64,000 nt of DNA from a virus. The stretch's first letter is position 1. The number at the start of each line of letters is the position of its first letter. The position numbers and the translations under genes were made by a program. The stretch is from positions 1-64,000 of the IMG/VR virus record IMGVR_UViG_3300035162_004754. One strand, 5' to 3'. Under the pieces are notes generated by a model. It saw nothing but the letters and a program-made list of their open reading frames with translations, made no database searches and was not told where the DNA came from. Shown here one piece after another: positions 5,476 through 54,130 of this stretch.

Positions 5476-5600
5476 ACCTGGTGGAGTCATATGACCCTCT
5501 TATGAGTTTACGGCATCTCTCAAATGCCGTTGGTGCGGGTGGGTTACTACCGTCCAGTTTCTTGCTCCTGGTCAAAGAGTAAGTGGCGTGCATGGCAAGA
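5476..5600 (+). ncRNA. wcaG/manA-type cyanophage structured RNA
   Basis: Three TGGYG motifs, hairpins ACGGCAT/ATGCCGT and CTTGCT/AGTAAG with pseudoknot-capable loops, directly upstream of nucleotide-sugar genes; exact family not confirmed. Confidence 0.65.
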
Positions 5601-25662: not shown

Positions 25663-25716
25663 AGTCAGTAAGTCAAGAAACGAACACATTTCTTAACTGT
25701 TCTTAACACCCCGCAA

Positions 25717-25810
25717 ACCAAGACCTCTAGGGTGTCTAAACACGTCTTTCATATCCCAGACTTAGGGTGTCTGGGAAATAGTAACTCCACCATTCCCTGA
25801 TGGTCTTACT
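25717..25810 (+). ncRNA. PhotoRC-II-type structured psbA leader RNA
   Basis: Two TAGGGTG loops, TCCCAGAC/GTCTGGGA stem, ACCAT-TCCCTG-ATGGT hairpin directly upstream of psbA. Confidence 0.7.
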
Positions 25811-25825
25811 TTTTCGTACAAAACA

Positions 25826-27114
25826 ATGGCTACAACTCTTTCAAGACAACAAACCTCTCCGTGGAATGATTTCTGCGAGTGGGTAACATCAACTAACAAT
25901 CGTTTGTATGTTGGTTGGTTCGGTGTATTGATGATCCCAACACTGTTAGCAGCAACTGTCTGCTTCATTGTCGCATTCATCGCAGCACCACCCGTCGATA
26001 TTGACGGTATCCGTGAACCCGTAGCAGGTTCACTCATGTATGGCAACAACATCATTTCTGGTGCAGTTGTCCCAAGTTCAAATGCAATCGGTCTCCACTT
26101 CTACCCCATTTGGGAAGCAGCATCTTTGGATGAGTGGCTTTACAATGGTGGTCCTTTCCAACTGGTAGTCTTCCACTTCCTTATCGGCATCTATGCTTAT
26201 ATGGGACGTGAGTGGGAACTTTCTTACCGTTTAGGTATGCGTCCATGGATCTGTGTTGCCTACTCGGCACCAGTCGCTGCTGCGAGTGCAGTATTCCTCG
26301 TCTATCCTTTCGGTCAAGGTTCTTTCTCTGATGCGATGCCTCTTGGTATTTCTGGTACTTTTAACTACATGCTTGTATTCCAGGCAGAACACAATATCCT
26401 TATGCACCCGTTCCACATGCTCGGTGTTGCTGGGGTATTCGGTGGATCTCTGTTCTCTGCTATGCATGGAAGTCTGGTTACATCTTCACTCGTCCGTGAG
26501 ACGACTGAAACTGAGTCCCAGAACTATGGTTATAAGTTCGGTCAAGAAGAAGAGACCTATAACATCGTCGCAGCCCATGGTTACTTCGGTCGTTTGATCT
26601 TCCAATATGCTTCATTCAACAACTCACGTTCCTTGCACTTCTTCCTTGCTGCATGGCCCGTTGTTGGCATCTGGTTCACCGCACTTGGTGTTTCTACGAT
26701 GGCTTTCAATTTAAATGGTTTCAACTTTAATCAGTCCATCCTTGATGGTCAGGGTCGTGTGCTCAACACATGGGCAGACGTATTGAACCGTGCCGGTCTT
26801 GGAATGGAAGTTATGCATGAGCGTCAAGTTGTGCTTTGCGCTCTTTAAATCGGATGAATTGCTGGAAACCCCAAGTGGGCAATCAGCAGCCAAGTCCTGG
26901 ATACATCCAGGAAAGGTTCAGAGACTACCTGAGGAATACAGTTTCCTTAATAACAGGTTCAAGCGTCCGACACCAGAAATGGTGATGATATAGTCCAATC
27001 CTGATAGCAATATCAGATAGTTAGGGAAAGTTTAAGAATGCACACAACTTCCCTCTTGACCTGGCATCAGCAGAATCTACTCCTGTAGCACTTACTGCTC
27101 CTTCCATCGGTTGA
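25826..27114 (+). CDS. psbA: Photosystem II D1 protein; spliced, exon 1 25826-26824, exon 2 27037-27114 (358 aa)
   Basis: D1 sequence up to EVMHER, resuming after the intron with [25 protein letters not shown]. Confidence 0.98.
26825..27036 (+). mobile_element. Group I intron in psbA (212 nt, no ORF)
   Basis: Exon ends in T, intron ends in G; P1 GAGCGT/GCGCTC with U.G pair; core elements AATTGCTGGAAA, AATCAGCAG, TTCAGAGACTA, GATATAGTCC; same position and length as the S-PM2 psbA intron. Confidence 0.95.
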
Positions 27115-53559: not shown

Positions 53560-53588
53560 TTGACTAAATAGGGTATAGGGTCTATAAT
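53560..53588 (+). promoter_or_regulatory. sigma70-type promoter
   Basis: TTGACT-17 nt-TATAAT. Confidence 0.8.
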
Positions 53589-53594
53589 GGACCT

Positions 53595-53821
53595 ATCGTT
53601 CATCAGAGGAAACTCTGACGCAAGTAAGTCGCGGAACGGAGCGTTCATCCCATGTTTGATATACTACTGTATACCACCCTCACTTGTTCTCAATCTAATG
53701 CAATTATGTTGCGGATGAAACAGAACGAAAATATTCCTCCCGAATATGAGGTGGAATTAATTGAGGTCATGAAGGAATCAAATCCTGATTGTTATTGGGA
53801 CGCAATCGACTGAAGGAACGG
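53595..53821 (+). ncRNA. Glutamine-riboswitch-like (glnA/Downstream-peptide class) tandem RNA
   Basis: Two CGTTCATC...GACGCAA...GGAACG units; AGTAAG and CTGAAG E-loop halves; upstream of a YRG peptide gene. Confidence 0.7.
53652..53813 (+). CDS. 53-aa ORF nested in the second aptamer (MFDILLYTTLTC...CYWDAID)
   Basis: Hand translation; GGAG RBS at 53638-53641. Confidence 0.6.
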   Translation: MFDILLYTTLTCSQSNAIMLRMKQNENIPPEYEVELIEVMKESNPDCYWDAID

Positions 53822-53883
53822 GAAAACACGGATCCATCGAAAGATGAGAAGGTTAATTTTCACCCAACTTCAGGAGTAAACAA

Positions 53884-54051
53884 ATGAACACACTTCAAAT
53901 GATTAAAAAGCAGATCAACAAAGCATCTGCACTGCATGACGCACAAGTTCTTCACACCTCATATCGTGGTGTTGAGTATGATACTCGTTGTGTAAAATCA
54001 AACGAAACACACGGTACATTCTGTTATCGTGGTCGTGTCTACAATAAGTGA
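53884..54051 (+). CDS. DUF4278-like YRG-motif peptide (55 aa)
   Basis: MNTLQMIKKQINKASALHDAQVLHTSYRGVEY...FCYRGRVYNK; AGGAG RBS. Confidence 0.75.
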   Translation: MNTLQMIKKQINKASALHDAQVLHTSYRGVEYDTRCVKSNETHGTFCYRGRVYNK

Positions 54052-54071
54052 GTCACTTACGTTAAAATTGT

Positions 54072-54099
54072 TAGGGGGGTTGCAAGACCCTCTTTTTTT
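54072..54099 (+). terminator. Intrinsic terminator
   Basis: AGGGGGGTT-GCAA-GACCCTCT followed by T run. Confidence 0.75.
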
Positions 54100-54130
54100 A
54101 TGCTATAATCAATTGAAATATCGCAGTATT

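Follow-up and report, generated by a model that had tools for sequence, protein, structure and literature searches.

A probable nested two-core form of the type-1 glutamine riboswitch, closed around a small protein gene, in cyanophages

The window analysed here comprises 64,000 nucleotides of a T4-like cyanomyophage (IMG/VR virus record IMGVR_UViG_3300035162_004754, positions 1 to 64,000). At 53560-54100 it carries two glutamine-type aptamer units, a 53-codon open reading frame (ORF) nested within them and a gene for a 55-residue peptide. We conclude that this RNA is probably a type-1 (glnA-class) glutamine riboswitch in a nested two-core form, with which an early phage transcript begins. It is an architectural variant of a known riboswitch class with a layout common to many cyanophages, and it is missed by the standard riboswitch thresholds. 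The comparison of the loci shows the outer core as a complete glnA aptamer with P1, P2a, the ACGCAAGUA linker and the AGUA/GAA E-loop. Its P3 encloses a three-way junction, which on the same comparative grounds is shown to be a circularly permuted second core: the P1 of this core is closed as a GAACG-GAG-CGUUC hairpin, its P2b is closed around the gene, and an ACGCAA linker leads back into P3. The elements are the following, where SD stands for Shine-Dalgarno sequence.

53597-53638, + strand: unit 1 of the glutamine-type aptamer
53597-53601, + strand: outer P1, 5' strand CGUUC; partner at 53816-53820
53604-53617, + strand: P2a hairpin CAGAG-GAAA-CUCUG; three pairs with many compensatory types, highly variable
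53618-53626, + strand: outer linker strand ACGCAAGUA; CGC is the pocket strand and AGUA (53623-53626) one half of the E-loop
53627-53631, + strand: P3, 5' strand AGUCG; partner at 53807-53811
53633-53646, + strand: inner hairpin P1', G-GAACG-GAG-CGUUC; the permuted P1 of the inner core
53642-53652, + strand: unit 2, 5' half, CGTTCATCCCA
53649-53652, + strand: P2b, 5' strand CCCA, its A being the first base of the nested AUG; partner at 53796-53799
53652-53813, + strand: nested ORF of 53 amino acids (phrog_504)
53796-53820, + strand: unit 2, 3' half, TGGGACGCAATCGACTGAAGGAACG
53796-53806, + strand: P2b, 3' strand UGGG, and inner linker strand ACGCAAU with the CGC of the inner core; encodes W-D-A
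53807-53815, + strand: P3, 3' strand CGACU, followed by GAAG, which supplies one E-loop half and the G that heads the outer P1 3' strand
53811-53813, + strand: stop codon UGA of the nested ORF, within P3/E-loop
53810-53815, + strand: anti-SD strand CUGAAG, made up of the P3 end, the stop codon and the E-loop half
53816-53821, + strand: outer P1, 3' strand GAACG, and a G that is a candidate to pair with the linker C
53868-53876, + strand: CUUCAG (53868-53873), the anti-SD partner, overlapping the downstream SD GGAG (53873-53876)
53884-54051, + strand: gene of the 55-amino-acid peptide with two YRG motifs (phrog_545; DUF4278/IF17-like)

The stretch 53642-53652 is a second CGUUCAUCCCA whose final A opens the ORF, and UGGGACGCAAUCGACUGAAGGAACG at 53796-53820 matches this 5' half of unit 2 and has the nested stop codon inside it. 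A first-pass annotation of the window had reported the aptamer motifs, the 53-amino-acid ORF and the YRG peptide gene, together with a promoter and a terminator, and all were found at the positions that it gave.

Related loci were then compared. With blastn the locus was matched in 415 of 50,697 deposited phage records, all of them Synechococcus or Prochlorococcus phages. A search of IMG/VR with the nested-ORF protein alone gave 80 loci, and every complete one was flanked on both sides by the same RNA motifs; the positions 53618-53626 were unconstrained in these protein-derived loci. A DNA pattern that left the inner strands free yielded at least 120 further loci, in which 53619-53632 was fixed by the pattern. 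Altogether 196 loci were parsed, and 122 distinct loci were aligned by MAFFT for the pair counts given below, which were well above those of shuffled and slid controls. Because of the blastn records, the RNA motifs around the protein-derived loci and the pair counts above the controls, the layout is not due to chance.

Since all four P1-type strands are identical in most loci (147 loci are canonical), the partner of each strand can be read from variants only. In 13 loci, a GCAACG in the 3' strand of unit 1 always occurred together with a CGTTG in the 5' strand of unit 2. Two of these 13 also combined CGTTT in the 5' strand of unit 1 with AAACG in the 3' strand of unit 2. When the nested structure was scored on the alignment, 98.2% of the cells were paired and the covariation was 0.151, against 0.054 for shuffles, none of which was as high (0 of 500). 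The structure with two side-by-side units gave 97.4% and 0.132. The outer closing pair of the nested form was CG in 120 loci and UA in 2, and the inner closing pair was GC in 110 and CG in 12, both without a mismatch, whereas the side-by-side form had 12 mismatches at each of them. As the nested closing pairs are free of mismatches, the partner of the first CGUUC is the last GAACG, and the middle strands form the local hairpin GAACG-GAG-CGUUC. The outer P1 helix (53597-53601/53816-53820) was 99.8% paired with one compensated pair. The first-pass annotation had each of the two units closing its own P1, and this pairing is contradicted by the 12 mismatched loci per closing pair.

The other long-range helices were analysed in the same alignment. 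In P3 (AGUCG/CGACU), whose strands are about 180 nucleotides apart, the pair counts were GC 113, AU 7 and GU 2, again with no mismatch. Further compensated forms were AUUCG/CGAAU in phage P-RSM4 and AGUCA/UGACU in a metagenomic sequence of the Weinberg 2010 alignment, bringing the compensated P3 variants to four. The double glutamine-type aptamer of the first-pass annotation, in which AGUA and the P3 5' strand of unit 1 pair with the P3 3' strand and GAA of unit 2, is thus borne out by a P3 that covaries without mismatch. The third pair of P2b was CG in 100 loci, UA in 14, UG in 7 and of another kind in 1, and in many loci P2b is extended to 6 base pairs, CCCAUG/CAUGGG, so that the start codon is wholly paired. 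The covariation of AGTCG/CGACT and TCCCA/TGGGA across cyanophages, which had been suggested as a check, was therefore seen in both helices, with GC replaced by AU in 7 loci for P3 and CG by UA in 14 for P2b.

A natural version that lacks the ORF supports the nested reading. In Synechococcus phage ACG-2014f the same double element is contained in 92 nucleotides (L321:598-689), P2b being a plain CCAG-GAAA-CUGG hairpin. Rfam recognises it as Glutamine with 41.1 bits (gathering threshold 35) and reads it as a single full aptamer that has a 41-nucleotide insert in P3, and the minimum free energy (MFE) structure of the aptamer alone is the nested fold. ORF-less elements made up 7 of the 120 loci in an unbiased sample collected with a unit-1 pattern, and nearly all the others carried an ORF in P2b. 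The ORF-less loci retain an intact inner core and the same expression platform. With only 92 nucleotides, this compact RNA lends itself well to binding and structural studies.

The expression platform lies downstream of the two cores. The anti-SD helix CUGAAG/CUUCAG was paired to 99.9%, and its third pair was GC in 64 loci, AU in 37 and GU in 21. The covariation reaches into the stop codon: when UGA is changed to UAA, the C of the partner is changed to U (CUAAAG/CUUUAG). The MFE fold computed for 53595-53890 (-74.5 kcal/mol) contains this helix. In the gifB leader of Synechocystis, the binding of glutamine frees a masked ribosome-binding site (PMC6212724), and peptides of the DUF4278 type were described by Klahn et al. 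as IF17-like candidate inhibitors of glutamine synthetase (PMC6212724). The anti-SD helix thus has the usual design of a glutamine-ON platform, here in front of the DUF4278 (IF17-like) peptide gene, and by analogy with the gifB leader it would respond to glutamine.

Two or more YRG motifs were present in 180 of the 181 downstream peptides. The DUF4278 profile (PF14105) matched 14 of 15 diverse peptides at the orthologous position with E <= 0.01 (best 2.3e-7); the peptide of the window itself scored 21.6 bits, below the curated cut-off of 25.3. The assignment of a YRG/DUF4278-type peptide gene followed by a terminator, made in the first-pass annotation, was upheld by the two YRG motifs, the 14 DUF4278 relatives and the terminator that was found. 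The peptide gene starts with ATGAAC or ATGAAT in 134 of the 181 loci, and the AUGAAC start occurred only in the class of peptides with 54-55 amino acids. We also noted that GUUCAU at 53598-53603 is complementary to the AUGAAC at the downstream start (53884-53889) and is paired with it in the MFE fold.

From these elements we propose the following mechanism. In the ligand-free fold, as the covariation shows, CUGAAG pairs with CUUCAG beside the downstream SD. Glutamine, probably bound at both cores, would lock P3, the E-loop and the outer P1, so that the SD is freed and the IF17-like peptide is switched on as in gifB. The same folding would bury the nested SD in the inner hairpin loop and the AUG in P2b, and the translation of the nested gene would fall at high glutamine. 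Ribosomes finishing the nested gene would unwind P2b, P3 and the outer P1 and thereby reset the sensor, and the downstream SD may be transiently unmasked. In this way the phage would read the nitrogen status of its host early in infection. The full proposal is that of a two-site, possibly cooperative glutamine sensor closed around protein genes, with high glutamine turning the embedded gene or genes off and the IF17-like peptide on, low glutamine doing the reverse, and finishing ribosomes resetting the sensor. We put it forward tentatively, as an idea that would sooner fail than hold. If true, it would be a riboswitch with reciprocal control of two genes and with translation as the reset, and one mRNA would sample the host nitrogen repeatedly.

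A related model, compatible with the nested riboswitch, gives translation a larger role. Here, ribosomes terminating at the UGA in the anti-SD strand would couple the two genes and reset the RNA by unmasking the downstream SD, and the peptide output would depend on nested translation as well as on glutamine. The stop codon does lie within CUGAAG, its middle base covaries with the partner strand, and the distance from the nested stop codon to the downstream AUG is 25-70 nucleotides. However, in a few loci the nested ORF ends earlier at a UAG in the 3' strand of P2b, and the loci without an ORF have kept the same platform. We regard such a coupling as possible, with chances somewhat short of even.

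Turning to the binding pocket of the proposed riboswitch, the crystal structure of a glutamine-II RNA shows it to be formed by C1:G40, by G2:C39 with a linker G as a triple, by the long-range pair of a linker C with the G after GAACG, and by the leading G of GGAACG (PMC6698751). According to the same paper, the pocket of glutamine-I is virtually the same, and U4:A37 and C5:G36 are the only members without high conservation (PMC6698751). When the 122 loci were compared with this list, every pocket position was invariant in the outer and in the inner core, and the sole varying pair was the equivalent of C5:G36. The following features of Glutamine-I (RF01739) were found: the P1 CGUUC/GAACG, a P2 hairpin directly after CGUUCA(U), the E-loop AGUA/GAA beside P3, and the pocket nucleotides. 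The GAA of the E-loop is located at 53812-53814, and its G is an A in 37 of the 122 loci. Glutamine-II (RF01704) is an H-type pseudoknot that has no E-loop and carries its GGAACGG strand in a second hairpin's loop, whereas here the E-loop and a covarying P3 are present. Two cores with complete sets of pocket nucleotides stand upstream of a single anti-SD helix, which is the dual-aptamer, single-platform arrangement of the glycine type. At the Rfam gathering thresholds nothing was detected at the locus in the window. With permissive settings, unit 1 was found as Glutamine with 25 bits (gathering 35) and as Glutamine-II with 21 bits (gathering 33). The Glutamine score stays below gathering because the RF01739 model cannot span the 175-nucleotide insert in P3.

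These conserved positions make a second ligand site at the inner core plausible. They have to be weighed against a simpler reading, in which glutamine is bound by the outer core only. The inner junction would then be left over from an earlier tandem copy and would persist as a scaffold, lengthening P3 and carrying the ribosome-binding site of the nested gene. One complete canonical aptamer suffices for the Rfam match, and the inner core lacks a separate E-loop and carries its linchpin G in a tight hairpin loop. Against a mere relic, all pocket nucleotides of the inner core are kept in the 122 loci, also at non-coding positions that no search pattern had fixed, and variation is confined to the one pair for which it is known to be tolerated. 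In addition, the W-D-A codons over the inner linker ACGCAA show almost no synonymous variation, whereas third positions elsewhere in the ORF are free, and the inner core is intact in the ORF-less versions. We therefore consider binding by the outer core only as rather unlikely.

The nested ORF is, as judged from its conservation, a real gene under purifying selection. Its product matched phrog_504 over the full length (residues 1-53 of 53, E = 1.1e-27). The codon-position entropies were 0.82/0.40/1.11, the codons of the invariant Cys, Glu and Pro were still synonymously variable, and the median ratio of non-synonymous to synonymous rates (dN/dS) was 0.27 over 3734 pairs. The coding constraint on which the first-pass annotation had made its nested gene depend is thus evident from the family match, the dN/dS and the codon pattern, and its SD, AUG and stop codon do lie in aptamer elements: the inner hairpin loop, P2b and P3/E-loop, respectively. 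AlphaFold2 (AF2) predicted a two-helix hairpin with a predicted local distance difference test score (pLDDT) of 77, and two Cys of the product are invariant. No match to the product was obtained in Pfam, none in the PDB with Foldseek at E <= 0.001, and in the ESM Atlas only unnamed viral clusters were found. NblA, a small helix-loop-helix protein of nitrogen starvation, was considered as a candidate and rejected, as Pfam gave no match, NblA was not among the Foldseek matches listed and the paper on viral NblA contained nothing relevant.

The inner hairpin loop together with the preceding G reads GGAG, the SD of the nested ORF. A GAG(N) loop was present in 113 of 122 ORF-bearing loci and in 0 of 8 ORF-less loci (Fisher p = 1.5e-8), and the nested SD thus seems to be an integral part of the inner hairpin RNA. 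A second ORF family occupies P2a. In about 14% of the loci, P2a contains an ORF of about 65 amino acids whose AUG belongs to the 5' strand and whose stop codon belongs to the 3' strand; the family, MLSILLALTLAHH...SCERFL...C, was seen in Syn9 (L043:464-661), P-RSM4 (L324) and about 25 other loci. The P2a helix and the identity of the stop codon covary (CUCAUG..CAUGAG, CUUAUG..CAUAAG, CCUAUG..CAUAGG). The P2a and P2b families were aligned by HHalign with a probability of 41% and E = 2.8e-4 over the Cys...Cys span, which is only suggestive of homology.

It could still be that the nested ORF is a passive passenger with a borrowed promoter, tolerated because P2 loops accept insertions and translated independently of glutamine. 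The length of P2a across the loci ranges from 10 to 232 nucleotides, the ORF-less versions exist and therefore the switch works without the gene, and P1' and P2b are predicted in both states of the RNA. Passengers, however, would not be expected to start within the 5' strand and to stop in or just past the 3' strand of two separate stems, P2a and P2b, with helix and stop-codon identity covarying together. The SD in the inner hairpin loop only where the ORF is present, and the start codon fully paired (CCCAUG with CAUGGG) in many loci, also speak for an adapted gene. On balance we find the passenger doubtful, and prefer a gene that is integrated into the nested riboswitch.

The side-by-side topology of the first-pass annotation deserves a last consideration as the ligand-bound state, with two aptamers each closing its own P1 and linked only by the P3/E-loop pseudoknot in trans. 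With identical P1 strands both pairings can form in most loci, unit 1 alone closes its own P1 in the folds of the growing transcript up to 53660, and unit 1 alone is aligned by Rfam as a truncated aptamer. In these folds unit 1 closes on itself first and is later converted by strand exchange to the nested fold, and the modelling suggests this order of events. As a final state, the side-by-side form is very unlikely. It is mismatched at both closing pairs in 12 of 122 loci where the nested form is not, the outer pair is specifically compensated in two loci (CGTTT with AAACG), and the Rfam model aligns the ORF-less version as nested. The nested fold was also better by 2.4 kcal/mol, P3 not yet being counted for the side-by-side form. 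That the RNA is not a metabolite sensor at all, and is conserved as a protein-binding site, the boundary of a recombination cassette or an mRNA stability element, is scarcely credible: its link to glutamine does come from family likeness, and its promoter stem-loop presumably resembles those of the shuffling cassettes of T4-type phages, but it has the full feature set of the glnA class with invariant pocket nucleotides, the typical downstream gene of the family and the typical SD-masking platform.

Several points weigh against the nested two-core riboswitch. The sequence of the window is below gathering in Rfam (25 bits against 35). Glutamine sensing by this RNA is inferred by analogy, from its membership in the family. 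In the inner core, the lack of an own E-loop and the position of the linchpin G in a hairpin loop of 3-4 nucleotides may be sterically awkward for a second pocket. The GGAG is missing from the loop in nine ORF-bearing loci. When the nested ON fold was enforced, it was 11 kcal/mol less stable than the OFF fold in a nearest-neighbour calculation with no ligand or tertiary term, and ligand and tertiary contacts would need to offset this difference. As P1' and P2b form in both predicted states, a glutamine-dependent translation of the nested gene would follow only from an assumed stabilisation by the ligand. For the comparative evidence, 120 loci were gathered with a pattern that fixes 53619-53632, and the covariation in P1 and P3 may largely come from a few evolutionary events. 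The evidence for transcription of the locus, described below, is weak.

The remaining features of the locus are the following.

53560-53588, + strand: sigma-70-type early promoter TTGACT-17-TATAAT, 11 of 12 matches to the consensus
53822-53866, + strand: optional structured spacer of 45 nucleotides, with a GNRA hairpin CAUC-GAAA-GAUG at 53835-53846
54073-54100, + strand: intrinsic terminator with a 9-base-pair stem and a U run, also delimited as 54073-54094

The -10 box of the promoter is located in the loop of a palindrome, GGGTC-TATAAT-GGACC (53578-53594, in the region 53564-53594), and a late-type CTAAATA motif overlaps its -35 box. Among 145 distinct upstream regions, a hairpin immediately 5' of the aptamer was found in 138, a sigma-70-like site in 102 and a late-like motif in 98. 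We take the promoter stem-loop to be like the promoter-early stem-loops, or shuffling cassettes, of T4-type phages. The 45-nucleotide spacer occurs in this phage and in about a dozen loci, and a short hairpin is in its place elsewhere. Its GNRA hairpin covaries (CAUC/GAUG with CAGC/GCUG) and is accompanied by a conserved GAGAAGGUUAA tail; no match to 53822-53866 was found in Rfam. Overlapping the terminator is another promoter-like site (54080-54109), TTGCAA-18-TATAAT with a TG upstream of it, and the next small ORFs and a thymidylate synthase gene follow downstream. Metatranscriptome contigs from the RNA libraries of two studies span parts of the locus, and several end at 54106-54112, past the terminator. 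These ends are a weak hint of transcription and termination, as strand, ends and level cannot be read from contigs and DNA carry-over is possible.

A few observations concern other loci and the rest of the window. The locus L098 (4626-4961, - strand) has one more aptamer-like CGTTCATCCCATCAG, the third, after its double element, and the CGTTC strand of unit 2 is absent in L339 and L344. When cellular genomes (596 Gb) were scanned for the inner-hairpin junction with its 15 specified bases, there were chance matches in unrelated taxa among the matches listed; the aptamer context was absent in the only Cyanobium match among those listed, contig L242. Elsewhere in the window, a wcaG RNA (5502-5597), a PhotoRC-II RNA (25694-25789), a group I intron (26815-27017) and three tRNAs (1480-1778) were detected at the Rfam gathering level.

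Glutamine aptamers in cyanophages and tandem copies of them were already known. The glnA alignment of Weinberg 2010 includes one sequence of the type described here, with unit 1 treated as the aptamer and the rest as flank and with no remark on nesting, and a survey of 2017 listed only two glutamine aptamers in cyanophage genomes (PMC5473149). The nested layout is not described in the review of tandem riboswitches (PMC9481103), from which the word 'nested' is absent, or in the other literature found, Ames and Breaker 2011 aside. Riboswitches are thought to be rare in phages, and here 415 phage records match the locus. The element provides a naturally occurring case of an aptamer that is circularly permuted and sits within a helix of its twin, and of protein genes inside aptamer stems, which place sensing and translation on the same nucleotides. 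It is also a route to study how cyanophages read and manipulate the nitrogen of their hosts, globally important picocyanobacteria, by means of IF17-like peptides.

The closest relative is Glutamine-I (RF01739), for instance the gifB/IF17 leader of Synechocystis (PMC6212724). It shares with our element the P1 CGUUC/GAACG, the P2 hairpin, the ACGNAAGUA linker, the AGUA/GAA E-loop and P3, as well as the SD-masking ON platform and the DUF4278 downstream gene. Unlike in Glutamine-I, P3 is not a hairpin here but is closed over about 180 nucleotides, enclosing both a protein gene and a second core in permuted form. Like type 2, the element has a CGC linker and a 3' G instead of CGG and a 3' C, and the sequence of the window scores below gathering. 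With Glutamine-II (the Downstream-peptide motif, RF01704, PMC6698751) the element has in common the pocket nucleotides, the CGC linker, the GGAACGG strand, the marine picocyanobacteria as host group and the YRG peptide genes. However, type 2 is a pseudoknot without E-loop or three-way junction, and the E-loop and a covarying P3 are present here.

Sherlock et al. (2022) reported 157 glutamine doublets and 4 triplets, which they class as independent and pseudo-cooperative, with separate expression platforms (PMC9481103). These tandem riboswitches also have two glutamine cores per leader, whereas in our case the cores are nested, share P3 and the E-loop and serve one platform. In this respect the element is more like the tandem glycine riboswitch, in which two homologous ligand cores must dock and act on one expression platform. 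The glycine aptamers, in contrast, are consecutive and dock by tertiary contacts, whereas in our element a helix of one core accommodates the other core in circularly permuted form. In long-range pairing of the MS2 type, a ribosome on an upstream ORF opens a helix that masks another ribosome-binding site. The nested element differs from such coupling in that its masking strands double as parts of a metabolite aptamer.

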